This document shows, in pieces, positions 10,825 to 60,209 of a stretch of DNA of 64,000 nucleotides. The stretch spans positions 1,497 through 65,496 of the forward strand of contig DATJHO010000052.1 of assembly GCA_035493835.1 (NCBI GenBank), read 5' to 3'. Under the pieces are notes generated by a model. That model made no database searches and was not told the DNA's origin. It saw nothing but the letters and a program-made list of their open reading frames with translations. This DNA is from Devosiaceae bacterium (GTDB lineage Bacteria > Pseudomonadota > Alphaproteobacteria > Rhizobiales > Devosiaceae). How positions within the stretch are numbered: the stretch's first letter is position 1; the number at the start of each line of letters is the position of its first letter. A program made the translations under genes and the position numbers.

Positions 10825-11172
10825 TCAATCGATCGGACTGAGATCGGCCTCGTCCACCACGCGCTCATGACTCTCGGCATCGCTGCGCACACGATAGAGG
10901 AACGGTCCGCCCTCGTTCGGCAACAGCGCCACCACCTGGCAATCGGCCTGCTGGCGCGCCCAGTGATTGCCGCCGCCGCGCAGCATCAGCCGCTGGCCAA
11001 TGGCATAGAGCGGTCCCTGGCCCGGCGTCACCGGCCCCGCGACACGCCGGTGCGGCCCCACCGATCCGCCTACCCGATGTTCCGGCATCTCCGCCGGATG
11101 CCCTGCCCGCTTCGGCTTTGGCGCCCCGCGCCGGCCGGTCACCGGCACGGCAATGCTCTTGATCTTGTCCAT
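10825..11172 (-). CDS. Hypothetical protein
   Basis: 115-aa ORF with an ATG start. Basic, Pro/Gly-rich N-terminal half and a compact C-terminal about 60 aa (YAIGQRLMLRGG...FLYRVRSDAESHERVVDEADL). No family recognised. Confidence 0.45.
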   Translation of the reverse strand: MDKIKSIAVPVTGRRGAPKPKRAGHPAEMPEHRVGGSVGPHRRVAGPVTPGQGPLYAIGQRLMLRGGGNHWARQQADCQVVALLPNEGGPFLYRVRSDAESHERVVDEADLSPID

Positions 11173-11388
11173 GCTACGTCCAGGAACTTCTCGATCTCGC
11201 CGGCCAATTTGCCGGCTGAGCGTCCGCGACGCTTTCGTTAGCTTATCACGTCCTCGCCCGGGAGGGGCGGAAATATGGGCCGGCGGGGGACTACACTACG
11301 CCAAGTAGTACGCAGGTCCTCTCGCCGTTCGATTTCGGCGATCGTTTGACTTTCCCGTATTCGGCACGCCCCCGCCCTCATTCCCAAC

Positions 11389-11421
11389 GAAAAAGGCCCG
11401 CAAGCTTTCGCCTGCGGGCCC
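11389..11421 (-). terminator. Rho-independent terminator
   Basis: GGCCCGCAGGC-GAAA-GCTTGCGGGCC followed by TTTTT on the minus strand, 42 nt after the stop of the lipoprotein gene. Confidence 0.75.
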
Positions 11422-11462
11422 AATATATCTGGAGGAAGCTCAGCGCCCCCGCCGGATCCGGC

Positions 11463-11732
11463 TTAGTAGCCGCGCGGGCAATGATTTTTCCAACGGCCGT
11501 GATGGTAACGGTCCGGACCGTACCAGCAATAGCCATCTTCCCCGACGACGTGGCCGAGCACCGCACCCGCCGCCGCACCGACGCCAGCGCCGATGGCCGC
11601 GCCCGCCACCGAGCCGGTCGTCGCCGCGCCAACCAGGCCACCGGTCAATGCGCCGATGCCGGCGCCCTGTTCAGTGGTCGAGCAGGCAGACAGCGACAGC
11701 GCCGCAACGAGGATGACGAGAATTTTTTTCAT
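11463..11732 (-). CDS. Glycine-zipper lipoprotein, 17-kDa surface antigen-like
   Basis: MKKILVILVAALSLSAC lipobox, then a GxxxG-rich GAGIGALTGGLVGAATTGSVAGAAIGAGVGAAAGAVLG segment. Start trimmed to ATG 11730-11732. Confidence 0.7.
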   Translation of the reverse strand: MKKILVILVAALSLSACSTTEQGAGIGALTGGLVGAATTGSVAGAAIGAGVGAAAGAVLGHVVGEDGYCWYGPDRYHHGRWKNHCPRGY

Positions 11733-11872
11733 GGAGTCCCTCCAGTTTACCCTTAACGCACGCAAATGCAGAGCCGCCGAGGAAAGTTCCACGATCCGGC
11801 GGCCCCAGGCGACCTTGTCCCAAGCATTGTGGCGACTTTGCTACAGAGGGAAACATCGAGACAGATTGCGGG

Positions 11873-12766
11873 TTAGTTTGTGACATTAGGGTCACGCCAC
11901 AGCCAGGCCCCCATTCGATTGCGAAACCAGGTGCGCTGCCGCTTGGCATATTGGCGCGTCGCGATCACCGCCCGCTCGATGGCCGCCTCGCGGGACATCT
12001 CGCCGGCGAGCCAGGCGCCGATCTCGCGCACCCCGATCGCCTTCATCGCCGGCAGGTTCGGGTCGAGCCCGAGAGCGAGCAGCGCCTTTACCTCTTCGAC
12101 CGCGCCACCATCGAACATTGTGGCAAAGCGCCTCGCGATCCGCTGCCGCAACACCTCGCGGTCTGGGTTGAGCACGATGCGCTCGACGGCAAAATCCTCA
12201 AGCAGGCCCGCCTGTTCGCCCGCCTGAAAGCTTGCGAGCGAGCGGCCGGTGGCCGCCAGCACCGCCAGCGCGCGCGCCACCCGTTGCGGATCGGGGGCCT
12301 GCAGCCGGGCCGCCATTTCGGGATCGCGCGCCCGAAGCAGCCGGCCGCGCGCCTCGGCATCGAGCCCTTCAAGCTCGGCGGCCACCCTCGCGTTCACCTC
12401 GTCCGGGATCGGCGGCACATCGGCAAAGCCGCGCTCCAGCGCCTCGAAATAAAGCCCGGTGCCGCCAACGAAAATCAGCGTTCTGCCGTCTGCCCCGGCG
12501 ATCACGTGCGCGGCGGCATCGCGCCATGCGCCGGTGGAAAAGCGGATCGCCGGATCGACGAAGCCGTAGAGAAGATGCGGCGCCTCGGCCGTTTCCAACC
12601 CCGAAGGCCGGGCGGTGACCACGCGCAACACGTCATAGACCTGCATCGCATCGGCATTGACCACGAGGCCCCCGGTCTCGCGCGCCATGGCGAGCGCCAA
12701 CGCCGACTTGCCGCTGGCGGTCGGACCCGCTATCAAAACCGCTCGCTTTTGCTGGCCCGCAGCCAT
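11873..12766 (-). CDS. miaA: tRNA dimethylallyltransferase
   Basis: AVLIAGPTASGKSALALAMA P-loop, VNADAMQVYDVLRVVTARPS, AKRQRTWFRN C-terminus. The 453-aa track ORF is an artefactual 5' extension; the real ATG is at 12764-12766. Confidence 0.9.
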   Translation of the reverse strand: MAAGQQKRAVLIAGPTASGKSALALAMARETGGLVVNADAMQVYDVLRVVTARPSGLETAEAPHLLYGFVDPAIRFSTGAWRDAAAHVIAGADGRTLIFVGGTGLYFEALERGFADVPPIPDEVNARVAAELEGLDAEARGRLLRARDPEMAARLQAPDPQRVARALAVLAATGRSLASFQAGEQAGLLEDFAVERIVLNPDREVLRQRIARRFATMFDGGAVEEVKALLALGLDPNLPAMKAIGVREIGAWLAGEMSREAAIERAVIATRQYAKRQRTWFRNRMGAWLWRDPNVTN

Positions 12767-12794
12767 CGTTCCCTCATTCGAGATTCGGCCCACC

Positions 12795-13667
12795 ATGTCG
12801 GTTCTTTGCCTCATCGCCAATCCCGTCGAGCCGATGTTCGATGTCAAGCTTGCCGCCGCCATCCAGCGGGAGGTTGGGGGTGAGCTCAACTGGCTCAACC
12901 ACGGCGTTGCTTGCGAAATCGTTTCGCCTCGCGTGTCCGATCCCACGGCCATCGCCCGCGCCATGCTCGGCAACGCGCCGATCGACGTCGCCCTGGTCCC
13001 GCTGGAACGGCGCCGGAAAAAGCTGCTGATCGCCGACATGGATTCCACCATGATCGAGCAGGAATGCATCGATGAGCTCGCCGATGCCATCGGCATCAAG
13101 GCCGAAATCGCCGCGATCACCGAGCGGGCGATGCGCGGCGAACTCGATTTCGAGGCGGCGCTCAGGACCCGGGTGGCCCTGCTCAAGGGCCTCGGCCGCA
13201 AGGCGATCGAAGAGGTACGGCGGGAAAAGATCACGATGACGCCGGGCGGGCGCGCGCTGGTCCAGACGATGAAGGCCTATGGCGCCTATACCGCGCTGAT
13301 TTCGGGCGGGTTCACTTTCTTTGCCGACCATTTCGCCAAGCGGATCGGCTTTGACGAAGCCACCGCCAATACGCTCGAATTCGAGGGCGACGTGCTCGCC
13401 GGAACGGTCGCTTCCCCCATCGTCGACAAATCGATCAAGCTCAAGCGCCTCAACGCGCTCATCGCCGAGCGCGGGCTGAAGCCGGAGGAGACGCTGGCGG
13501 TGGGGGACGGCGCCAACGACCTCGACATGATCACCGCCTCGGGCCTGGGCGTTGCCTTCCACGCCAAGCCCGCCGTGGCCGCCGCTGCCCATGTGCGGAT
13601 CGACCATGGCGATCTCACCGCCCTGCTCTATCTCCAGGGCTATGCGGACGAAGAGATCGTAAGGTGA
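12795..13667 (+). CDS. serB: Phosphoserine phosphatase, HAD family
   Basis: LLIADMDSTMIEQECIDELA (DxDxT), SGGFTFF and VGDGANDLDM motifs. Divergent from miaA as in many Rhizobiales. ATG at 12795. Confidence 0.9.
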   Translation: MSVLCLIANPVEPMFDVKLAAAIQREVGGELNWLNHGVACEIVSPRVSDPTAIARAMLGNAPIDVALVPLERRRKKLLIADMDSTMIEQECIDELADAIGIKAEIAAITERAMRGELDFEAALRTRVALLKGLGRKAIEEVRREKITMTPGGRALVQTMKAYGAYTALISGGFTFFADHFAKRIGFDEATANTLEFEGDVLAGTVASPIVDKSIKLKRLNALIAERGLKPEETLAVGDGANDLDMITASGLGVAFHAKPAVAAAAHVRIDHGDLTALLYLQGYADEEIVR

Positions 13668-20535: not shown

Positions 20536-20658
20536 GGCATTTTCCCGCGCGTCGATTCGCGTGAGGCGATTATCTCTCGTGTTGACCGTCGGCGCGATGG
20601 GCAAGTGGGTGCGCCCGCCCGCATCCGCAAGGAAATCGCCATCCGCCCCGCCAAGCAT

Positions 20659-20687
20659 TTGCATCGCCGGGCCGGCGGCCATATATA
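20659..20687 (+). promoter_or_regulatory. Sigma70-type promoter of ssrA: TTGCAT, 17-nt spacer, TATATA
   Basis: Near-consensus hexamers with optimal spacing, immediately upstream of the tmRNA acceptor piece. Confidence 0.6.
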
Positions 20688-20693
20688 AGACCT

Positions 20694-21010
20694 GCCGGCA
20701 ACGGCTACGGCGATAAACGGTTATCGTAATAAACCCATCGGACCCGGGGGCAGTACCCGGCGCCTCCACCATCTCCCCTCCTTCGCGGGAGGAGCCTATG
20801 GGGGCGAAACAGGATCGACGAGGGCGTAAAGGGTATTCTTTCGCTCGGCATGGTACCGCCGTTATCGGACCAAACCTATAGTTGCGAATGATAACAACTA
20901 TGCTCCGGTCGCTCTCGCCGCGTAAGCGGTGCGAGTCCGGGAATTGAAGCCCTCTTGCTCTAGCAGGTAAGAGGCGGGGTCCGCAGGCACCTGGCAACAG
21001 AAGCCTGTAT
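20694..21010 (+). ncRNA. ssrA: Two-piece (circularly permuted) tmRNA gene, alphaproteobacterial type
   Basis: Acceptor piece ends in a T-arm-like hairpin CCGGG-GGCAGUA-CCCGG (20744-20760) plus CGCCUCC-ACCA (20761-20771). After a 28-nt spacer the coding piece starts GGGGGCGAAACAGGAUCGACG (20800-). The two acceptor strands pair with a G:U at position 3. Tag ORF AUAGUU-GCG AAU GAU AAC AAC UAU GCU CCG GUC GCU CUC GCC GCG UAA (20884-20925) encodes [13 protein letters not shown]. Ends are approximate. Confidence 0.9.
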
Positions 21011-21068
21011 TTTCTCCTTTTTTCGCGCGGATTGTTTCCCCCAAAAGGCTGAAACGGCTGGCCGCAAG

Positions 21069-42576: not shown

Positions 42577-42599
42577 CAAAAACGGCCTCAGGCGGCCGT
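42577..42599 (-). terminator. Probable rho-independent terminator overlapping the stop codon of the FMN reductase gene
   Basis: Minus strand reads ACGGCC-GCCUGA-GGCCGU followed by UUUUUG. The stem is only 6 bp. Confidence 0.45.
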
Positions 42600-43157
42600 G
42601 CGCATGCCCTTGAGCGGCCCCGTCCACTTCTTTAACTCGGCCAGCATCGCGGCGGCGCCCTGCAGCATCTGGTCGTTCGGCGTAAGCACGCCGTCGGGGT
42701 CGATGAACTGCGTAAAGAAGGGCACGTGAACCGCTTCCGGGAGCGGTACGACCTTGAGCGTGGTGATGATCTGCTTGAACATCTGCAGCCCGCGCGTGCC
42801 GGCCGACACGCCACCATAGCTGACGAAACCCATCGGCTTGTAGAACCACTCGCTGAACAGGTAGTCGAAGGCATTGATCAGCGCCGGCGAGGGGCCATAA
42901 TTGTATTCCGGCACGACGGCGATGAAGGCGTCGGCGGCATCCACCAGCGCACTCCACTGCTTGGTGTGGTCGTAGTGGTAGTGCTTGAGACGGGGATGGT
43001 CGGGCTCGTCCAGCATCGGCAGGTTGAGCTCCTTGAGATCGACTGCAGTGATCTCCCAGTCTTCAGTCTTGCGCGCCACTTCCTCGATCCATTTCGCCAG
43101 GATCGGCCCTTTGCCCCCATCACGGGTAGTTGCCGTGATGATCATCAACTTATGCAT
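42588..43157 (-). CDS. NAD(P)H-dependent FMN reductase family oxidoreductase, located between ftsA and ftsZ
   Basis: 189 aa. KLMIITATTRDGGKG, VVPEYNYGPSPALINAFDYL and SYGGVSAGTRG motifs. Same family as ORF 3001..3603. Confidence 0.75.
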   Translation of the reverse strand: MHKLMIITATTRDGGKGPILAKWIEEVARKTEDWEITAVDLKELNLPMLDEPDHPRLKHYHYDHTKQWSALVDAADAFIAVVPEYNYGPSPALINAFDYLFSEWFYKPMGFVSYGGVSAGTRGLQMFKQIITTLKVVPLPEAVHVPFFTQFIDPDGVLTPNDQMLQGAAAMLAELKKWTGPLKGMRTAA

Positions 43158-43261
43158 GTAGAACTTCCGCTATAGGTACCGCTCCATGGCGGCACCCAAG
43201 CTCGTTGCCGAAAATAGCTTCCCGGTCTAGTCGGATTGACGCATGCGGCGCATGCGTTCCG

Positions 43262-44575
43262 TCAAAAGCTCGTGCGCAGCCAATTGCCGACGCGGGCGAA
43301 ATAGCCGTCGGTGCCGGTGAGCCGGCGGGTGTTGCGCGGCTCGACATATTCCTGGGCGCAGATCTGCGGATAGACCATCATGCCGGCAACCGTTGCAAAG
43401 CCGGCGCCCTTGGCCATTTCCGGCAGGCCGGTGATCCCCATCGGGCGCCCGTTGCGGACATTGCGGGCCAAAAGCCGCCTTGCGACTTCCGGCAGGCCGG
43501 TCAGTTCGCTTGCCCCGCCGGTGAGTACGAAGCGGCGGCCGCACACATCCATCATGCCCGTCGCCTGCATGCGATCGCGAACGGCGGTGAGGATTTCCTC
43601 GATGCGCGGGCGCAGGATCCGGATGATGGCCGAGCGCGGCACCTGCCCGGGAGCCTCGTCGATCGTTGCACCCACCGGCACGATCGGGATCATCTCGCGC
43701 TCGTCGGACTGGCCCGGCAGCACGCTGCCATAGATTGTCTTCATCCGCTCCGCATCGGCCACGCCGATCGAAAGCTGGCGTGCGAGGTCGAGCGTCAGAT
43801 GATGGCCGCCGATGGCGATGGCGTCCGCATAGACGAGGTGGCTGTCGGAAAACACCGAAACCGTGGTCGTCGCCCCGCCGAAATCGATGCAGGCGACGCC
43901 CAGCTGCGCCTCGTCATCGACCAGCGTCGCGAGCCCGCTTGCATAAGGGGTCGCGACCAGCGCCTCGATCTGCAAATGGCAGCGATGCAGCACCAGTTCG
44001 ATATTGCGCATCGCCAGCGTCTCGGCGCTTACCACGGCAACATCGACGCCGAGCTTTTCGCCGACCATGCCGAGCGGCTCCCGGATCCCCCGTTGCCCGT
44101 CGAGCGAATAGCCGATCGGCAGCGCGTGGATGATCGAGCGCTCCGGCCTGACGCTGCGCTCGTTCACCGCCCGCAGCACGCGGACGAGATCGCTCTTTTC
44201 GACCTCCTGCCCGCCCAGCGACACGGCCGCCGAAAACGTCTCCGATCCGAGACGCCCGGCGGTGACGTTGACCAGCACGGATTCGAGCGTCAGCCCCGCG
44301 GCGCGCTCGGCCATGCCGACGACCGATCGGATCGCCTGCTCGGCCTTGTCGAGATCGGTGATCACGCCGCTCTTGATGCCCGAGGATTTGCCATAGCCGA
44401 AGCCGATCACCTCGGCCGAATGGGTGCGGCCCTTGAGCGACTTGCTTTCCGGCTTGGGGGTGAGCCGGGCGATCACGCAGCAGATCTTGGTCGAGCCGAT
44501 GTCGAGCACCGACACCAGGCTCGGACGCCCCGGCTGCACTGGCTTCAGCCTTGCGGTCATTGCTTCAGTCATCAT
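43262..44575 (-). CDS. ftsA: Cell division protein FtsA (actin-like ATPase)
   Basis: VSVLDIGSTKICCVIA phosphate-1 motif, VACIDFGGATTTVSVF, LTGGASELTGL. Start trimmed to ATG 44573-44575, directly after the ftsQ stop. Confidence 0.9.
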   Translation of the reverse strand: MMTEAMTARLKPVQPGRPSLVSVLDIGSTKICCVIARLTPKPESKSLKGRTHSAEVIGFGYGKSSGIKSGVITDLDKAEQAIRSVVGMAERAAGLTLESVLVNVTAGRLGSETFSAAVSLGGQEVEKSDLVRVLRAVNERSVRPERSIIHALPIGYSLDGQRGIREPLGMVGEKLGVDVAVVSAETLAMRNIELVLHRCHLQIEALVATPYASGLATLVDDEAQLGVACIDFGGATTTVSVFSDSHLVYADAIAIGGHHLTLDLARQLSIGVADAERMKTIYGSVLPGQSDEREMIPIVPVGATIDEAPGQVPRSAIIRILRPRIEEILTAVRDRMQATGMMDVCGRRFVLTGGASELTGLPEVARRLLARNVRNGRPMGITGLPEMAKGAGFATVAGMMVYPQICAQEYVEPRNTRRLTGTDGYFARVGNWLRTSF

Positions 44576-44576
44576 C

Positions 44577-45542
44577 TTAATCGCCCGCCGGCGCCGCGTA
44601 ATCGGCGTCCGCTCCCGGATTTTTCTTTTCGCTGTTCTTGAGGTTGTCGAGCCTCGCCTTGGCGGCCGCCGCCAATTGCTGGGCCGCGGCCTGGGACGGC
44701 TCGACCGCCACAATCCCGGGCACGCGCAGATCGACCACCACGATGTCCCGCTGCAACAGCTGGAATTTGTCCTGCAGCGTCATCAGTTGGGCCAGCGCCT
44801 GCGCCACCCCGCTCTCGGGCAGCTGGATGCGGAGCCCCGACTGGTAAATCATGTCCCAGCGCCGGTCGGCGATGCGCGACAGGGCCACCAGCCCCTGCTT
44901 CAACGCCGGATACTGGTTCATCGCCATGAGCATCACCATGGCGTCGTCGCCCGCCGCATCGCCGACGACCAGCGGAAGGCTCGGATAGTCGCCGCCGTTT
45001 TCCGAAATCTTGGCGCCGGTGCTGTCGATCAGATAGGTCACCCCGTTCAGGCGCCAGCGCGCCACCGGCACGCGCTCGGTCACCGACACATAAACATGGC
45101 TGGGATAAACCTTGCGCACGGTCGCTTCGGACACGGCCGGCAGCGCCTCGATCGCCTGGCGCGCCGCATCGGCATCGAAGTTGAACATCGAGGTTTCAGG
45201 CCTGATCGCCAGCGCCGAGACGATTGTCTTCTCGTCGGTCAGGGACATGCCGCTGATCGAAATTCGCGCGATCGCAAAGGGCGAATGCGCCAGCTGCCGC
45301 TCGCCGAGCACGTAGAGATTGCCGGCCTGCGTGCCGATTTCCTCGCGCACCTGATAGAGTCCGCCGCCGACCGCGCAGCAGCCGAGCAGCACCATTCCCT
45401 GCAGCACGCGCTTGCGATGCAGCACCCACACCCGGCCGATGTTCAGGAACGAGCGGCGGCGCGGCGCCGCGATCAGCCCCGGCAGCCGCTTGGGATCGAC
45501 GGCGATGGCACTGGCGAAGGCATCTGCGCCTACCTGTTGCAA
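44577..45542 (-). CDS. ftsQ: Cell division protein FtsQ
   Basis: Single TM ([18 protein letters not shown]), then POTRA/FtsQ domain ([16 protein letters not shown]...[22 protein letters not shown]). TTG start, uncertain. Confidence 0.8.
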
Positions 45543-46450
45543 CTCGCGTCCTCCACCATCCAGCTGACCAGTTCTTCAAAGGAGTGGCCCGCATGGAGAG
45601 CCTGCTCCGGCACCAGGGAGGTGGGCGTCATGCCCGGCTGGGTGTTGATTTCCAGACAGACCAGCTCGCCATCGCCCCCTGCCCGGTCGTTGAAACGGAA
45701 ATCCGTCCGTGTCACGCCTCGACAGCCGAGCGCCTCATGGGCTTTGAGGCTCATTTTCTGTACTTTTTCGTAAATAATCGGTGAAATATTCGCCGGAATG
45801 ATGTGGCGCGACCCGCCTTCGGCGTATTTTGCCTCATAATTGTAGAACGAAAGGTCGGTGACGATCTCCGTCACCCCCAGTGCGACGCCGCCCATCACCG
45901 CGCAGGTCAGCTCGCGGCCAGGAATATAGCGCTCGACCATCACCTCTTCGCCGCCGACCCAATCCTCGCGGAGAATCTCCTGCGGCGGATGGCCGTGATC
46001 GGCCTTGACGATGAAAACGCCAAAGCTCGACCCATCAGCGATCGGCTTGACCACATAAGGCGGCTGCATGGCATGCGCCCGGGCAACCTCGGCACGGTTG
46101 AGGATCAGATGGTCGGTCACGGGAACGCCCGCGGCCTTGAGCATGATCTTGGCCTGGTGCTTGTCCATCGCCAGCGCCGAGGCGAGCACGCCCGAATGGG
46201 TATAGGGAATTTCCAGCAGCTCGAGCAGCGCCTGCATCATGCCGCTCTCGCCAAATGCCCCATGAAGCGCGTTGAACGCCACATCCGGCCGGAGGCGCCC
46301 CAGCACCTCGGCCACGTCGCGGCCGACATCGACCTCGGTCACCTCGTAACCAGCGTTACGCAGCGCCTGCGCGCAGGCCTTGCCCGAACTCAGCGACACC
46401 GGCCGCTCATTCGACCAGCCCCCCATCAGGACGGCGACGTGCTTGGTCAT
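45530..46450 (-). CDS. ddl: D-alanine--D-alanine ligase
   Basis: [60 protein letters not shown]. Confidence 0.95.
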
Positions 46451-46482
46451 CGGATTGCCTCCGCCCGCCCCACAACCTCGGC

Positions 46483-46581
46483 GTCATTCCCGCGAACGCG
46501 GGAATCCATCTCCGGCCCGCGGCGGCAGGCTTGCGGCGGATCAACGGCGGCAAAATGGATTCCCGCGTTCGCGGGAATGAC
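46483..46581. repeat. Family A REP doublet in the ddl-murB spacer
   Basis: GTCATTCCCGCGAACGCGGGAATCCAT (46483-46509) and ATGGATTCCCGCGTTCGCGGGAATGAC (46555-46581). Identical to the units at 21069-21179 but in the opposite arm order. Confidence 0.8.
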
Positions 46582-46610
46582 GCCGTGGAAGATGAAAAGC
46601 TTGGTGCTCA

Positions 46611-47588
46611 TCACACGGCCCCCGTGAACACATCGCCGTCCAAAAACTCCCGCACTTCCTGCCCCGGCACGAAATGCCCCATGCGGCGGATTTCCCATTT
46701 GAGTTCGATGCCGGAGTTCGCCCGCACCCGGTTGCGCACCGTCTCGCCCAGCGTCTCGATGGCATTGGCGTCGGCATCGCCCAGGTTGAGCAGAAAGTTG
46801 GCGTGCATTTCCGACATCTGCGCCCCACGGATGGTGAGCCCACGGCACCCCGCCTCGTCGACGAGCTTCCACGAAGAAAGCCCCTCGGGGTTCTTGAACG
46901 TCGAGCCGCCGGTCCTCGCCCGCGTCGGCTGCGAACCCTCGCGCTTTTCGGTGATCTCGCGCATCCGCGCCAGGATCTCGTCCTTTTCGCCGGGCAGGCC
47001 CTGGTAGATCACGGACGTGAACACCGCGCCGCGCGGCCCGTTCGATTTGCGGTAGAGGTAGCCCATATCGGCATTGGAAAGGGTGATGATCTCCCCTTCC
47101 CGCGTCACCGCGCGAAGCTCCGCCATCCGCTCGCGCGTTTCGCTGCCATAACAGCCGGCGTTCATGTAGAGCGCGCCGCCGATGCCGCCGGGAATGCCGC
47201 GATAAAAGCTCAGCCCGTCAATGCCCGCTTCGGCCGCCGCAGTGGCCACTTTTACGTCAGGCATCGCCGTCCCGACGCGAAGACGATGCCCCTCCAGCAC
47301 CTCGACCCCGCCAAAGCCCTTGGCCGGGAGCCGGATCACCACGCCATCAAGGCCACCGTCACGGATCAGAAGGTTCGAGCCCAGCCCGATCACCGTCACC
47401 CTGATGTGTTGCGGCAAGTGCTTGAGAAAGAAGGCGAGGTCGGCTTCGTCCGCCGGCTGGAAGAACAGCTGCGCCGGCCCGCCCACCCTGAACCAGGTGA
47501 CTTCGCTCAGCGCCTGGTTGGGCGTCAGCCGCCCGCGCACCTCGGAAACCCAAGGTTGAAGTTCTGGTAGAAGATCAGGCCAGCTCAT
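46611..47588 (-). CDS. murB: UDP-N-acetylenolpyruvoylglucosamine reductase
   Basis: [59 protein letters not shown] 47586-47588 overlaps the murC stop (ATGA). Confidence 0.9.
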
Positions 47589-49006
47589 GGCTCCACTTCC
47601 TTGCCCATCAGGGCGCCCAGCTCGGCGGGGAGCGTCGCCGCCCACTGCGTGATGTTGCCCGCCCCGAGGAGGACAACATAGTCGCCCTCCCCGACCCGGC
47701 CGGCGAGCAGCGATGCCAGTTCCTCCGGCCGGTCCATCACGCGCGCGTCGCGATGGCCGCGCGCCCGGATGCGGGAGACGAGTTCCTCATGGGTGACGCC
47801 CGGGATCGGCTGCTCGCCCGCCGCATAGACCGGCGCCACGATGACCGTGTCCGCATCGTTGAAGGCAACGGCGAAATCATCGAACAGGTCATGGAGCCGG
47901 GAATACCGGTGCGGCTGCACCACGGCGATGACGTCGCGCCGGGTCGATTGCCGCGCCGCCCGCAGCACCGAGGAAATTTCCACTGGATGGTGCCCGTAAT
48001 CGTCGATCACGGTCACGCCGCCGACGACGCCGGTGCGGGTGAAGCGCCGCTTTACGCCGGAAAAGGCCTTGAGGCCCTTGCGGATAGCCTCGGCCGGAAT
48101 GTGCAACTGATCCGCCACCGCGATTGCGGCAGTGGCGTTGAGCGCATTGTGCTCCCCCGGCATGGGCAGCGTCAGCCCGTCGATCCGCAATTGCGTCATG
48201 CGGATGCGGTCGCGGATCTCGACCGAGAAATGGCTCTGGCCATCCACGATCTGGAGATCGATCAGCCGCACATCGGCCTGCGGGTTGGTGCCATAGGTGA
48301 TGACGCGGCGATCACGCACCTGCCCCACCAGCGACTGCACCTCGGGGTGGTCGATGCACATGACCGCAAAACCGTAGAACGGCACGTTCTCCACGAAATT
48401 GTGGAACGCCCGCTTCACGCCCTCGAAGTCGTGATAGTGGTCGAGATGCTCGGGATCGATATTGGTGACCACAACCACATCGGCCGGCAATTTAACGAAA
48501 GTGCCGTCGCTCTCGTCGGCTTCAACCACCATCCACTCGCCGCCGCCCAGGCGCGCATTGGTGCCGTAGGCATTGATGATGCCACCATTGATGACGGTGG
48601 GGTCGTAGTTGGCGGCATCGAGCAGCGTTGCCACGAGCGTGGTTGTCGTAGTCTTCCCATGCGTGCCGCCGATGGCGATCGCGTTCTTGAAACGCATGAT
48701 CTCGGCCAGCATTTCGGCCCGCCGCACGATCGGCAGCCCGCGCGCCCGCGCCGCGACCAGTTCCGGATTGTCGCCCTTGATCGCCGAGGAAACCACGACC
48801 ACGGCGGCATCCTTCAAATTCTCGGGCCTCTGGCCGACTTCGACCGGAATGCCCATGTCGCGCAGGCGCTGCACATTAGGATTGAGCGCGCTGTCGGAGC
48901 CACGCACCGCGTAATTCTGGTTGTGCAGAATCTCGGCAATGCCGCTCATGCCGATGCCGCCGATACCGACAAAATGCACCGGCCCGATATTGCGCGGCAT
49001 CTTCAT
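47585..49006 (-). CDS. murC: UDP-N-acetylmuramate--L-alanine ligase
   Basis: [42 protein letters not shown]. Confidence 0.95.
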
Positions 49007-49078
49007 GGTTTTACCCCTGTTCTGGGAGCGTGTCCGGCAAGAAGGATCGTCCGCTTTGACGGTCCGAACGCGCGACGA

Positions 49079-50185
49079 TTACACATTGTGCGGCTTCCTG
49101 CCGGCGGCGAGCTTTTCGGCCAAATCGGCCAGAAGCGCAACTGCGTCCGGCCGTCCGAGCGATTTTGCGACGGCGGCAGCCTTGGCTAGCGACTGCGGCG
49201 CGCTCAAAAGCGCGTTGAGCCGCTCCGCCAATGCCTGCGGCGTCAGCGAGGCCTGCTCGGCGATCCAGCCGCCCCCTGCCTGATCGAGCACCAGGGCGTT
49301 GTTCTTCTGGTCGGCGTCAATGGCACCCGGCAGCGGTATGAGAATCGCCGGACGGCCGATGACGCAGAGTTCGGCGACAGTGCCGCCACCCGAACGCGAA
49401 ATCACCAAATGGCTCTGCGCCATCCGCTCCGGCAAATCGGAGAAGAACGGAGCGAGATCGACATTGATCTTGGCCAGCCGATAGGCGTCCGTCACCTGAT
49501 CCATGTCTTCCGCCCGGACCTGCTGCACCAGCGCCAGTCGCGAGCGCAATTGCGGCGGCAGCAGCGCGATGGCGGCCGGTACGAGCTGCCCGAAAGCGCG
49601 TGCGCCCTGGCTGCCGCCGAAGACCAGCACGCGAATGGCATCGTTAGGGCCGAGCATCGGGTAGGGAACCTTCGCGGCTTCCCGCGCCCGGTCGCGCACC
49701 GGATTGCCAGTGATCACCACCTTTTCGGCAAATTCCTCGCTGCGGGCGGTGTGCTCGAAGCACAAGGCCAGCTTGTCGGCAAAGCGGGCGAGAAGGTGAT
49801 TTGCCCGGCCGAGAACCGCATTTGAGTCATGCACCGCCCCCGGTATCCCCCTGAGCCTTGCGGCAAGGAAGGAGGGGACGGTCGGGTAGCCGCCGAAGGC
49901 GATCGCGGCATCGGCACGAATGCCGCCCAATTGCTGCCAGGCGACACTAATGCCCCAGAGAATTTTGAGAGCCGCCGCAGCAAGCTTCACCGGATTGCGG
50001 ATCGAAGGCGTCGCCGAGGGCACCACATGGGTTTGCTCGGCGAGAAAATTGTCGCCATACCCGGAAACGCGCTCATCGGTCATCAGGTGGATGACATGGC
50101 CCCGCCGGCGCAATTCCTGCGCCAGCGCCATGGCCGGGAAGAGATGCCCCCCCGTGCCTCCAGCCATCAGGACAATGGTGCTCAT
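49079..50185 (-). CDS. murG: Undecaprenyldiphospho-muramoylpentapeptide beta-N-acetylglucosaminyltransferase
   Basis: IVLMAGGTGGHLFPAMALAQEL, VFGGSQGA, SRSGGGTVAEL. Confidence 0.95.
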   Translation of the reverse strand: MSTIVLMAGGTGGHLFPAMALAQELRRRGHVIHLMTDERVSGYGDNFLAEQTHVVPSATPSIRNPVKLAAAALKILWGISVAWQQLGGIRADAAIAFGGYPTVPSFLAARLRGIPGAVHDSNAVLGRANHLLARFADKLALCFEHTARSEEFAEKVVITGNPVRDRAREAAKVPYPMLGPNDAIRVLVFGGSQGARAFGQLVPAAIALLPPQLRSRLALVQQVRAEDMDQVTDAYRLAKINVDLAPFFSDLPERMAQSHLVISRSGGGTVAELCVIGRPAILIPLPGAIDADQKNNALVLDQAGGGWIAEQASLTPQALAERLNALLSAPQSLAKAAAVAKSLGRPDAVALLADLAEKLAAGRKPHNV

Positions 50186-51345
50186 TCTGCAGGCGCCACC
50201 ACGGCGGAGCGGTAAGCCGGCAAGCCCGAGGCGAGGCGCTGCTCCGGCTTCTTGCGGGTCAGCGCCAGCATCAGGCCCATGCCGAAGGCGATGGCGATCA
50301 TCGAGGTGCCGCCGTAGGAAACAAAAGGAAGCGTCATGCCCTTGGGGGGAATCAGGTTGAGGTTGACGCAGAGGTTAATTGCCGATTGCAGCCCGAATTG
50401 GATTGCGATGGTCGAGGCAGCCAGCCGGTTGAAGAGGCTCGACTGCTGTTGCGCCGAGATCAGCGAGCGCACGACGATGAAGCAGATCAGCCCCACCAGC
50501 ACCAGGCAGAACAGCAGCCCGTAGTCGCCGGCGGCGGCCGAAAACACATAGTCGGCGTGCGCGTCGGGGATGAATTTGTTGGCGATCGATTCACCCGGGC
50601 CCCGCCCGAACCAGCCGCCCTCGAGCAACGAATTCAGCGCCTTGTCGACTTGGTAGGTATTTCCCCCGCCCTCAGGGTTGAGGAAGCTGTCGATGCGGTT
50701 GGAAACGTGCGGGAAGGCCAGGTAGGCGCCGTAGCCGAGCCCGACCGCCCCGGCCAAGAGGCTGAAGATGACGATCCAGGAAATGCCCGACATGAACAGC
50801 AGCGCCGCGAGCGTGGACAGCATCAGGGCCGTCTGCCCCACGTCCGGCTGCAGCACCAGCGCGCCGACGATCGGCAGCACCAGTATCGACGCGATGATCC
50901 GGCCGGGGATATCCTTCTTGATCATGCGCTCCGAAAACAGCCACGCCGCAATCACCGCATAGGCCGGCTTGACGAACTCGGAGGGCTGGATCGACTGGCC
51001 GGCGAAATTGATCCAGCGGCGCGCGCCCTTGACTTCGGCACCCAGCTTGAGCGTCGCCCAAAGTGCAAGGACGCTGACCACCAGCGTAATCAGCGCCGCC
51101 ATCCGCACCTGTCGCGCGGTGAGCAGCGAGGCGGCGACCATGACTGCGACCGAGGGCACCGCGAAGGCGCACTGCCTGACGATGAAAAAGTAATAGGGCA
51201 GGTGCAGCCGCTCGGCGACGGCGGGGCTGGCGGCAAAACTCAGCACCACCCCGCACCCGATCAGCAGGATGAGCGCCACCAACAATTCGCGGTCCACCGT
51301 CCACCACCATTCGGCGATCGGCGTTTTCTTCTCGCGTGAAAACAT
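50182..51345 (-). CDS. ftsW: Peptidoglycan glycosyltransferase FtsW (SEDS family)
   Basis: 10-TM FtsW/RodA pattern (RWINFAGQSIQPSEFVKP, PDAHADYVFS, PPKGMTLPFVSYGGTSM). Stop overlaps the murG start. Confidence 0.9.
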   Translation of the reverse strand: MFSREKKTPIAEWWWTVDRELLVALILLIGCGVVLSFAASPAVAERLHLPYYFFIVRQCAFAVPSVAVMVAASLLTARQVRMAALITLVVSVLALWATLKLGAEVKGARRWINFAGQSIQPSEFVKPAYAVIAAWLFSERMIKKDIPGRIIASILVLPIVGALVLQPDVGQTALMLSTLAALLFMSGISWIVIFSLLAGAVGLGYGAYLAFPHVSNRIDSFLNPEGGGNTYQVDKALNSLLEGGWFGRGPGESIANKFIPDAHADYVFSAAAGDYGLLFCLVLVGLICFIVVRSLISAQQQSSLFNRLAASTIAIQFGLQSAINLCVNLNLIPPKGMTLPFVSYGGTSMIAIAFGMGLMLALTRKKPEQRLASGLPAYRSAVVAPAE

Positions 51346-51420
51346 GATGACGCGCCGCCCCCAAGCGAGCGGCCTCCCGGTACTGATACGCAGGGGTTAA
51401 CGATAGCTCACTGTTGGTTA

Positions 51421-51457
51421 GCAAATCGCAAAGTGAATCGCGATTTGCGATTCACTT
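51421..51457. promoter_or_regulatory. Two interleaved perfect inverted repeats; putative Phd/VapC operator in the ftsW-phd divergent spacer
   Basis: GCAAATCGC (51421-29) pairs with GCGATTTGC (51440-48). AAGTGAATCGC (51431-41) pairs with GCGATTCACTT (51447-57). Located 47-83 nt upstream of the antitoxin ATG. Confidence 0.45.
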
Positions 51458-51503
51458 GAGGGGCGGCCCGGCAAGGCCTACGCTGCCGAGAAAGGAGGCG
51501 ATC

Positions 51504-51749
51504 ATGGACCGGGTCCGCGACACCGAAGCCAAGGAACGTTTCGAACTTCTGCTCGACCGCGTCGAGCAGGGCGAAGAAATCATCATCACCCGCGACGGCA
51601 AACCCGTCGCCCGCCTGGTGCAGGCCGAACCCGACTTCGATCGCGCCGCGGCGCTGCAGGCGGCGGAACAGATACAGGAACTCTCGAAGGGGCAAAACCT
51701 TCAAGGTCTCTCAATCAAGGACCTGATCAACGAGGGGCGGAAATATTGA
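51504..51749 (+). CDS. Type II antitoxin, Phd/YefM family
   Basis: 81 aa. AAAGGAGG SD 5 nt upstream. EAKERFELLLDRVEQGEEIIITRDGKPVARLV is the typical Phd/YefM N-domain. Overlaps the toxin start by 4 nt. Confidence 0.85.
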   Translation: MDRVRDTEAKERFELLLDRVEQGEEIIITRDGKPVARLVQAEPDFDRAAALQAAEQIQELSKGQNLQGLSIKDLINEGRKY

Positions 51750-52156
51750 TCGTCCTGGACGCTTCCCTGACACTCTCCTGGTACTTTGAGGATGAGCGAA
51801 CACCGGATCGCCTAGACGTCCTCCAGAAAGTTGCAGGGGCCGGCGCCGTAGTTCCGGCACACTGGCCCTTGGAAGTTGCGAACGGATTTGTGATGGCGGT
51901 CAGACGCGGTCGCATGTTTGCCGATCGCCGTGAGCTTGCATTCGCCGCTCTCGCGGCCTTGCCGATAACGGTCGATCCGGACTCCGCCACCCATGCCTGG
52001 TCGCTGAGCGTCGATCTAGCCGATCGTAGCCGCCTGACGGTCTACGATGCGGCCTACCTGGAACTCTCGCTCCGGCGAAAGCTTTCGTTAGCCACTCTGG
52101 ACATGCAACTCGCGCAGGCGGCCCGAAGCGCTGGCGTTGCCGTACTGCCCTCCTGA
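51746..52156 (+). CDS. vapC: Type II toxin, PIN-domain ribonuclease (VapC family)
   Basis: 136 aa. MIVLDASLTLSW...(E)...TVYDAAYLELSL...LATLD carries the PIN acidic residues (D5, E, D, D). TTG start within TTGA overlap. Confidence 0.8.
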   Translation: MIVLDASLTLSWYFEDERTPDRLDVLQKVAGAGAVVPAHWPLEVANGFVMAVRRGRMFADRRELAFAALAALPITVDPDSATHAWSLSVDLADRSRLTVYDAAYLELSLRRKLSLATLDMQLAQAARSAGVAVLPS

Positions 52157-52157
52157 G

Positions 52158-53243
52158 CTACCGCAGCTTCAGCGAGCTCAGCCCGATCAGCGCCAGCACG
52201 AAGGCGATGATCCAGAAGCGGATCACGACCTGGCTCTCGGTCCAACCGATGTGCTCGAAATGGTGGTGGATCGGCGCCATGCGGAAAACCCGCTTGCCGG
52301 TCAGCCGGAACGAGGTGACCTGCACGATCACCGACACGGTTTCCAGCAGGAACAGCCCGCCGATGATGGCCAGCACGATTTCGTGCTTGGTCGCCACCGC
52401 GATCGAGCCGAGCGCACCGCCCAAAGCGAGCGACCCCGTATCGCCCATGAAGATCTGGGCCGGTGGGGCGTTGAACCAGAGAAAACCGAGGCCGGCGCCG
52501 ATCAGCGCCCCGCAGAGCACGGAGAGCTCGCCGGTCCCCGGCACGAAATCCACCAGCAGGTAATCGGCAAAATTCTGGTTGCCCACGAGATAGGCAATCA
52601 GCCCGAACGAGCCCGCCGCGATCATCACCGGCACGATGGCGAGGCCGTCGAGCCCGTCGGTCAGGTTCACGGAATTGCCCGCCGCGACAACAACGAACCC
52701 GCCGATGAGAAAGAAGAAGATGCCGAAATTGAGCGCCAGCCCTTTGACGAAGGGGAAGAGCAGCGAATGCGAGTAGTGCGTGCCATCCATCATCGACATC
52801 AGATAGGCCGCGATCGCCGCGATGATGAACTCAAGGAGCAAGCGCTGGCGGCCGCCAAACCCCTTGTGCGACATGCGCGTGACCTTGAGATAGTCATCGT
52901 AAAACCCGATTGCCCCGAAGGAAACGGTCACGCCCAAAACGATCCATAGGTAGCCGTTCGCGAGATTGCCCCACAGCAATGTCGAAACAACGGTGCCGGA
53001 GAGGATCATCAGCCCGCCCATGGTGGGCGTGCCCTTCTTGGTCAGCAAGTGGCTCGCCGGACCGTCTTCACGGATGGGCTGGCCCTTGCCTTGCCGGATA
53101 CGCAACCCGGCAATCATTCCCGGACCGAAGAGGAAGACAAAAAACAGCGCCGTTACAACGGCGCCGGCGGTTCTGAAAGTAATGTAGCGAAAGACATTAA
53201 AGGCGGTGAGCTCACCACCCAATTGGCCCAGAAAATAGAGCAT
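52158..53243 (-). CDS. mraY: Phospho-N-acetylmuramoyl-pentapeptide transferase
   Basis: [45 protein letters not shown]. Confidence 0.95.
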
Positions 53244-53279
53244 GCCAGTACGTTTCCTCGTCTAGGCGGCAGCAGTCGC

Positions 53280-58021: not shown

Positions 58022-58396
58022 TTACTGCCCCCCGATCGGTTTGTCGGCCGGATCGACACCGGCTTGCAGCGAGCTGAACAGCGCCGTCATCGCCGCGGTA
58101 TCGGGCTGCACCGGACGCATCGGCAATTCGGAAAGCGAGCCGAACTGCGTCTGCTTGATCGGCTGCAGGTTGAGCTGGGCAATGTGCCGGTCGATGATCG
58201 GCTGGATGTAGGAGGGCTGGTTTAGATAGGACCAGTCGGCCTCGAGCAGCGATAACTGGCCCTTCTGCTGCTCGATATGCCGCTCGAGCGCCTGCTTGTT
58301 CTTGGCCACTTCCTCGACCGAGTATTTGAGACCGTAGACGGCAACGAAGGCTATGCTGCTGGTGATCAGCAGCAGGATGTTGAGCTTCCGGATCAA
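58022..58396 (-). CDS. ftsL: Cell division protein FtsL (alphaproteobacterial type)
   Basis: 124 aa. Single TM (NILLLITSSIAFVAVYGL) then a coiled coil. Located between rsmH and ftsI. TTG start overlaps the rsmH stop. Confidence 0.75.
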   Translation of the reverse strand: MIRKLNILLLITSSIAFVAVYGLKYSVEEVAKNKQALERHIEQQKGQLSLLEADWSYLNQPSYIQPIIDRHIAQLNLQPIKQTQFGSLSELPMRPVQPDTAAMTALFSSLQAGVDPADKPIGGQ

Positions 58397-59765: not shown

Positions 59766-59790
59766 GCAGCGGACCACAGCGCCAAAAGTG

Positions 59791-60209
59791 CCAGTTGACC
59801 TGTAAGCCGGGTTCTGTAGGGCCGACCAGCCTGCCGGCACGAGGCCGACATGCTGCTCGACGTGGTGGCCATTCATCTGCGACGCCTGTTGCCAGCCGCC
59901 TCATGCAACCAACCCGGGTAGCTGGCCTCGAAAACCGGCCGGCTTACGCCGCGCTACCCCTATTTGGTCTTGCTCCCGGTGGGGTTTGCCGTGCCGTCCC
60001 CGTTGCCGGGGCCGCGGTGCGCTCTTGCCGCACCCTTTCACCCTTGCCTGCCAGATCTACCGAAATAGACCGGGCAGGCGGTTTGCTTTCTGTGGCACTT
60101 TCCCTGGGGTCGCCCCCGCCGGCCGTTAGCCGGCACCGTATTTCGATGGAGCCCGGACTTTCCTCCCCGCAAGGGTTACCCCAAGCGGAGCGGCCACCCG
60201 GTCAACTGG
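59791..60209 (-). ncRNA. rnpB: RNase P RNA, bacterial type A
   Basis: Minus strand reads CCAGUUGACCGGGUGGCC...GGGGAGGAAAGUCCGGGCUCCAUCG...GGUAAGGGUGAAAGGGUGCGG...ACAGAACCCGGCUUACAGGUCAACUGG. All universally conserved P4/J-region blocks are present, and the P1 strands at 60200-60209 and 59791-59800 are complementary. Confidence 0.95.

Follow-up and report, generated by a model that had tools for sequence, protein, structure and literature searches.

We analysed a 64-kb stretch of DNA (the window, to which all coordinates refer) from one contig of a Devosiaceae bacterium metagenome-assembled genome (MAG), in which a two-gene toxin-antitoxin cassette, phd-vapC, lies between mraY and ftsW in the cluster of genes for division and the cell wall (dcw). 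The first gene, phd (51504-51749, plus strand; ATG at 51504, TGA at 51747-51749), encodes an 81-residue antitoxin of the Phd/YefM family that exceeds the cut-offs of both PF02604 (42.8 bits, cut-off 29.8; E=4.5e-11) and TIGR01552 (40.4 bits, cut-off 20.8), and a Shine-Dalgarno (SD) sequence, AAAGGAGG (51491-51498, plus strand), can be read 5 nt upstream of its ATG. The second, co-directional gene, vapC (51746-52156, plus strand; TTG at 51746, TGA at 52154-52156), encodes a PIN-domain toxin of 136 residues (PF01850, 31.0 bits, cut-off 23.6), overlaps phd by the 4 nt TTGA, and runs tail-to-tail into the convergent mraY (52158-53243, minus strand; TIGR00445, 392.8 bits, and the table of open reading frames, ORFs), with a single nucleotide separating the two stop codons. 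On the other side, a 158-bp spacer (51346-51503) separates phd from the divergent ftsW (50182-51345, minus strand; PF01098, E=9e-71, and TIGR02614), which heads the distal half of the cluster. An earlier note on this DNA had described the same gene calls, the overlap of 4 nt and the single base that parts the convergent stops, and the ORF table and the sequence bear out each of these points.

The module is a standard type II toxin-antitoxin system of the Phd/YefM-VapC class. As in other Phd/YefM VapBC systems (e.g., those of Mycobacterium tuberculosis, PDB 3DBO and 6JQY), a short antitoxin gene comes first and overlaps the gene for a PIN toxin, the antitoxin matches the family of the Phd/YefM N-terminal fold, and the toxin carries four PIN acidic residues: D5, E43, D101 and D119 align with those of the PIN protein PAE0151 (PDB 2FE1) and are conserved across the VapCs found at the mraY-ftsW junction. 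Phd also resembles phage P1 Phd, besides the M. tuberculosis antitoxin chains. The window pair differs from such systems in its location inside a division and cell-wall cluster, and its proteins are only weakly similar to the solved examples (E about 0.01-0.1). By analogy with these systems, VapC would be an endoribonuclease toxin neutralised by Phd, and the pair is probably working. No Rfam family was matched in the spacer or the cassette. The class is well known and the toxin is already annotated, window VapC being identical to database protein P0001, listed by NCBI as 'VapC family toxin [Devosiaceae bacterium]'; the locus thus presents a known element in a new context and no new mechanism.

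The cluster around the cassette is otherwise recognisable throughout. Canonical proteobacterial dcw clusters run mraZ-rsmH-ftsL-ftsI-murE-murF-mraY-murD-ftsW-murG-murC-murB-ddl-ftsQ-ftsA-ftsZ, and the window keeps the order rsmH, ftsI, murE, murF, mraY, ftsW, murG, murC, murB, ddl, ftsQ, ftsA and ftsZ, departing from the canonical one in that murD is absent. MurE, MurF, MraY, FtsW, MurG and MurC were identified by NCBIfam profiles, and FtsI, MurB, RsmH, Ddl, FtsQ, FtsA, FtsZ and LpxC by Pfam, which secures every member of the gene list given in the earlier note except ftsL; no Pfam family was hit by the ORF standing where ftsL would be (58025-58396). That note had also allowed for an assembly artefact at the cassette junctions. 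An independently assembled contig from a Joint Genome Institute (JGI) metagenome (Ga0310811_10015260; L001) matches the window over 43222-53266 with 28 mismatches, no indels and an identical layout, shows no difference at all in vapC, and yields the same 81-residue phd product from a gene caller; an artefact at the junctions is ruled out because this contig shows the same layout.

Absence of murD and the variable mraY-ftsW junction

When tblastn was run against the 64 kb with three Hyphomicrobiales MurD queries, only the MurE, MurC and MurF paralogues were returned, at E values of 1e-9 or above, so the statement of the earlier note that the window lacks murD stands. The nearest relatives, in a MraY scan of species-representative genomes, belong to Devosia (MraY identity 82-83%), and in Devosia elaeis and two Devosia-like MAGs (L002, L003 and L005) the mraY-ftsW gap measures 149-224 bp and holds no murD. 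Among other Hyphomicrobiales (L006 onward) the gap is typically ~1.4 kb, the size of murD, and murD itself was read directly in three such gaps (L006, L020 and L078). An FtsW-based scan of metagenome contigs supplied ~80 further Devosiaceae-like loci, and the two scans combined gave 73 resolved Devosiaceae mraY-ftsW junctions, none of which contains murD. Absence of murD from the junction is therefore a trait of the family Devosiaceae. The earlier note had placed the cassette in the position of murD, as its replacement; murD is missing from every Devosiaceae junction examined, 45 of them free of any cargo, and its separation from mraY-ftsW across the lineage is a state that the note itself had named as counting against its view.

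The known biology of peptidoglycan precursors offers a context for this trait. According to one review, Devosia and Pelagibacterium, genera without genes for the formation of D-glutamate, possess MurD2 and MurL; MurD2 ligates L-glutamate, and MurL then epimerises it (PMC8788868). The pathway, represented by XOO_1320/XOO_1319 of Xanthomonas oryzae and reported in Devosia, Pelagibacterium and Parvularcula, would account for a Devosiaceae cluster without canonical murD, with the difference that its link to the window organism comes from the literature and is drawn at the level of the genus. This alternative route may well account for a family-wide loss of canonical murD from the cluster, and the loss would have made mraY and ftsW direct neighbours. 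On that view the lack of murD would characterise the family and go with an already known alternative route to peptidoglycan, and the cassette would not be its cause.

The shortened junction is a variable slot particular to Devosiaceae. Most of the junctions are empty (45 of 73), with 87-348 bp between the two genes (median 129). Six of the 73 carry Phd-VapC, one of them together with a DUF4394 gene, and two further Phd-VapC loci are cut by a contig end; DUF4394 stands alone in seven junctions and is combined with an extracytoplasmic function (ECF) sigma factor and an RskA-type anti-sigma factor in four, while the remaining 11 hold other cargo, among which we identified a 3-keto-disaccharide hydrolase, a PMT_2 glycosyltransferase, a major facilitator superfamily (MFS) transporter, and an AraC regulator beside an unknown 656-residue protein. 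This resembles the variable slots between core genes described as hot spots or genomic islets, in that the mraY and ftsW flanks are conserved, the cargo differs, and alleles are incongruent with the host tree. It differs from them in lying inside a very conserved essential cluster and in having no integrase, tRNA gene or attachment repeats. Inserts between the mraY stop codon and a conserved block just upstream of ftsW (described below) would spare both the coding sequences and the block, and diverse accessory genes may have collected in the slot because insertion there leaves the genes and the ftsW block intact. When the literature was searched for toxin-antitoxin or VapC modules within division and cell-wall clusters, nothing relevant came up, and we found no published description either of a toxin-antitoxin system inside the dcw cluster or of a family-wide mraY-ftsW slot.

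The ECF sigma/RskA/DUF4394 set occupies 11083-13270 of the Devosia sp. YR412 locus (L004) and recurs in the metagenome lineages L130, L131 and L148; in L004 the anti-sigma gene is, like vapC in the window, tail-to-tail with mraY, and its stop overlaps the mraY stop. Some cassette-less spacers contain palindromic units such as GGATTCCCGCCTTCGCGGGAATGAC that are similar to repetitive extragenic palindromic (REP) elements (L087, 288 bp; L088/L089; L005, 8866-9089), two inverted copies being present in L087, and these units are another sign of a junction that tolerates insertions.

The explanation that we favour, at a probability of roughly three in four, is that a standard Phd-VapC module resides in a permissive, murD-less slot of the Devosiaceae and acts neither as a replacement for murD nor as a dedicated regulator of ftsW. 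The cassette would live in this tolerant position as an accessory or selfish element. It may have entered once, early in the family; since then purifying selection would have maintained it in some lineages while others deleted it, and recombination would have passed it between lineages. On this account, a highly conserved essential cluster that loses one of its genes can thereby acquire a permissive slot for accessory genes, here including a toxin-antitoxin polymorphism that is long-lived and recombines, and for the toxin-antitoxin field the junction would show neatly how a system persists, is lost and swaps alleles at one position between core genes.

Distribution and history of the cassette

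The earlier note had raised the question of whether the cassette is specific to one strain. The next-best VapC in the database (P0002, 66% identity) is found at the identical site and in the same orientation in four metagenome samples (L082-85), whose contigs are 99.4-99.7% identical to one another and are treated here as one population, species B. Window and species B share the same cassette boundaries, with identities of 92% for MraY, 86% for FtsW, 83% for MurF and 76% for MurG, as against 66% for VapC and 67% for Phd. Further junction cassettes were found in L096, L103, L135, L138, L106 and L134 and are scattered over all major branches of the Devosiaceae FtsW tree, so that Phd-VapC occupies the same junction in at least seven Devosiaceae lineages, with unrelated cargo in others, and is not confined to one strain.

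MIVxDAS and ...VLP are the termini common to the junction VapCs; of the best 120 database relatives, only the window protein, its fragment P0013 and species B have the ...VLP C-terminus. VapCs of 60-63% identity sit at unrelated metabolic loci, where they are paired with Phd or with an HTH_37 antitoxin. In the cassette-less L097, a 25-residue remnant of the VapC C-terminus lies directly beside the mraY stop codon and is a deletion scar; no cassette remnants were found in the closest cassette-less relatives, L087-L091. A single early insertion followed by losses is favoured on account of the shared VapC termini, the common junction across the tree, and the L097 scar.

Both genes of the cassette are under purifying selection. 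Between the window and species B, the ratio of nonsynonymous to synonymous substitution (dN/dS) is 0.13 for phd and 0.16 for vapC, within the range of the flanking genes (0.07-0.19; ftsW 0.13, murG 0.19). Synonymous divergence is higher in the cassette than in the flanks (1.7-2.3 vs 0.7-1.0), and the divergence of the cassette is uncorrelated with that of FtsW (Spearman 0.08 for VapC, -0.23 for Phd). Between L135 and L138, FtsW is 95% identical while VapC is 47% and Phd 35% identical. Here the cassette is a mosaic: along L135 1-900 and L138 3997-4900, the 3' end of mraY and the last ~119 nt of vapC are ~85% identical, as in the flanks, and the remainder of vapC and the whole of phd are highly divergent. 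Such patterns suggest that old alleles have been exchanged among lineages by recombination through the conserved flanks. L138 also has an inserted DUF4394 gene, which separates the promoter region of phd from the ftsW block.

The strongest competitor, which we consider improbable, holds that related Phd-VapC cassettes have inserted repeatedly and independently at a site-specific hot spot. It would explain the patchy distribution over the FtsW tree and the lack of correlation between cassette and host divergence, and it fits the presence of other cargo at the same site, some of it likewise tail-to-tail with mraY. Against it stand the otherwise rare MIVxDAS and ...VLP termini common to the junction VapCs and the near-identical boundaries of the cassettes across lineages, with cassette-only inserts of 796-816 bp; the breakpoint inside vapC of L135 and L138 points to homologous replacement, and no integrase or recombination-site features were found. 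Reinsertion at a hot spot is therefore the weaker alternative to an exchange of old alleles.

The ftsW-upstream block and transcription across the junction

The ~110 bp directly upstream of ftsW (51346-51458, minus strand) are conserved in 78 distinct Devosiaceae spacers, whether or not these hold cargo. Read in the orientation of ftsW, the aligned block comprises a TCGCAAAAYGCGA box, then TTGGCAAATCGGTAACCA, then a GCTACAAT-type element, which in the window correspond to the TCGCAAATCGCGA box at 51438-51450, TAACCA at 51415-51420 and a GCTA-type -10-like element at about 51400-51407, all on the minus strand. Many lineages, the window included, add an SD-like GGGAGG (51374-51379, minus strand) and then a short GC hairpin (51354-51373, minus strand) ahead of the ftsW ATG. 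In the shortest spacers the TCGC box directly abuts the mraY stop codon, and when 68 Hyphomicrobiales loci from outside the family were examined over the 260 bp upstream of ftsW, none contained the motifs of the block. Judged by this distribution, the block belongs to the family Devosiaceae and is independent of the cassette.

The block probably carries an ftsW-proximal promoter or regulatory site, and the suggestion of the earlier note that ftsW has a promoter within the spacer is plausible given the ~110 bp conserved in the 78 sequences. Internal promoters are a known feature of division clusters, as with E. coli ftsQAZ and the CtrA-dependent ftsQA of Caulobacter. The likeness to these lies in a conserved, promoter-like block directly upstream of an internal gene. 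The pattern TTGG-N7-GTAACCA...GCTACAAT (window 51400-51450, minus strand) may be like that of Caulobacter CtrA promoters, TTAA-N7-TTAAC with a GCTA-type -10, although a look through the literature for this consensus yielded nothing useful; in the alignment of the 78 spacers, a TCGC-N5-GCGA box lies upstream of the GTAACCA pattern. For the study of cell division, the block offers a concrete candidate for an internal promoter in Devosiaceae. The arrangement of GGGAGG, a hairpin of 5-7 bp rich in GC and, ~6-10 nt further on, the ftsW ATG is seen in the window (51354-51379, minus strand) and at equivalent positions in 26 aligned Devosiaceae loci. Of the five predicted pairs, two have changed in a compensatory manner (e.g., GCCGC/GCGGC in the window vs GCCAC/GTGGC in L084), and folding of the hairpin would shorten the distance between the GGGAGG SD and the ftsW start codon.

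The cassette has a conserved promoter-like site of its own just upstream of phd, from which the pair may be transcribed. In the window it consists of TTGAGG (51456-51461), a 17-nt spacer and TACGCT (51479-51484), spanning 51456-51484 on the plus strand. Six of the eight junction cassette loci have the corresponding pattern TTGNNN-N17-TANNNT at this position, between the TCGC box and phd, where shuffled sequences lead one to expect ~0.1, and the -10 element of the conserved site ends 19-25 nt upstream of the phd ATG; a strict sigma-70 scan returned no promoter.

At the far end of the cassette, the 1-nt gap confirms the point made in the earlier note that the convergent stops leave no room for a terminator, and a search of 51000-52600 found nothing convincing, the one weak terminator-like site lying within chance expectation. 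Mutual antisense read-through between mraY and the cassette is plausible from this layout. A dependence of the distal half of the cluster on the cassette does not follow, given that 45 relatives have the same ftsW block and no cargo.

Two interleaved palindromes lie in the part of the conserved ftsW block nearest to phd (51421-51457), with perfect arms of 11 nt (51431-51441 and 51447-51457) and 9 nt (51421-51429 and 51440-51448). They are real and statistically unusual. The reading of the earlier note, in full, would have the cassette replace murD and encode a Phd-VapC complex that binds them and co-regulates ftsW-murG-murC-murB-ddl-ftsQA, with the cassette and mraY mutually antisense. The palindromes do have the phd -35 element on one side and the ftsW-upstream block on the other, the convergent stops do leave no terminator room, and the cassette does persist at its site under purifying selection. 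The family-wide absence of murD, including the 45 cargo-free junctions, nevertheless removes the first element of this proposal, and the palindromes do not follow the presence of the cassette: the core palindromes, AATCGCGATT or TCGC-N5-GCGA, are present with the entire block in the cassette-less close relatives L104, L088/L089 and L091, and the 11-nt arms of the window are unconserved in the cassette-bearing species B (L084). Because the conserved block is shared with cassette-less relatives, the palindromes give no sign of being operators imported with the cassette, and no operator specific to the cassette was identified. Most relatives, moreover, have the same ftsW block without a cassette, and others fill the same slot with unrelated cargo. 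We regard regulatory coupling of this kind as quite unlikely.

An equally doubtful variant would have the cassette kept at precisely this site over a timespan as long as the family's because, through its convergent transcription towards mraY and a promoter back-to-back with the ftsW block, the state of the pair tunes the peptidoglycan and division genes, or the reverse, with the 11-nt palindrome as a co-opted shared operator. The significance of the locus would rise beyond that of an accessory resident in a permissive slot only if ftsW or mraY expression turned out to be linked to the cassette.

Remaining explanations and neighbouring features

It is very unlikely that a mobile cassette inserted only recently, in this one strain, and has no long-standing tie to the locus. 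Such a view would fit the lack of the cassette in the four nearest named Devosia genomes, a GC content a little below that of the flanks (about 0.60 vs 0.64-0.66), and the occurrence of related VapCs at unrelated loci. This view is largely refuted by species B, in which the same boundaries enclose a VapC of 66% identity, by the same boundaries in at least five further lineages with junction cassettes, and by the L097 deletion scar; in addition, the junction VapCs have their distinctive termini in common, and no target-site duplication or terminal repeats surround the cassette, a search for direct repeats of that kind having found none. A flanking 24-nt inverted repeat is only 75% complementary and was judged a chance occurrence. 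That the cassette is a decaying, non-functional remnant, as the frameshifted vapC of L135 and the 25-residue remnant of L097 might suggest, is hardly credible in the face of two intact ORFs in the window, the catalytic residues of VapC, dN/dS values of 0.13-0.16, a conserved promoter-like site and SD, and a vapC identical in L001.

Several points weigh against the favoured account of an accessory module in a murD-less slot. Neither murD2 nor murL turned up in the 64 kb or in the retrieved Devosia loci, although no search was aimed at them, and the link between the absence of murD and MurD2/MurL comes from the genus-level statement of one review. The argument for a single origin draws on shared termini and boundaries, and in a neighbour-joining tree built from these short sequences, which has no support values, the junction VapCs are not monophyletic by the tree alone. 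The L135 frameshift could be a sequencing error. In the window, the palindrome is extended to 11-nt perfect arms that abut the phd -35 element, which leaves a small chance that it has been co-opted as a Phd-VapC operator. Finally, the function of the toxin, the use of the phd promoter and the ftsW promoter are all predictions made from sequence.

Other features of the window lie within the cluster or further from the cassette. A gene for an NADPH-dependent flavin mononucleotide (FMN) reductase (42588-43157, minus strand; PF03358, E=3.5e-32) stands between ftsA and ftsZ and is a second non-division gene within the cluster. A bacterial class A RNA of ribonuclease P (59787-60209, minus strand; 301.7 bits) lies a short way upstream of the cluster at its rsmH end, and a two-piece alphaproteobacterial transfer-messenger RNA (tmRNA) is encoded at 20655-21011 (plus strand; 282.8 bits). 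Within murG, 12 of the 28 differences between the window and L001 cluster in 68 nt (49183-49250), a pattern that suggests either a short tract of recombination or variation in the assembly there.

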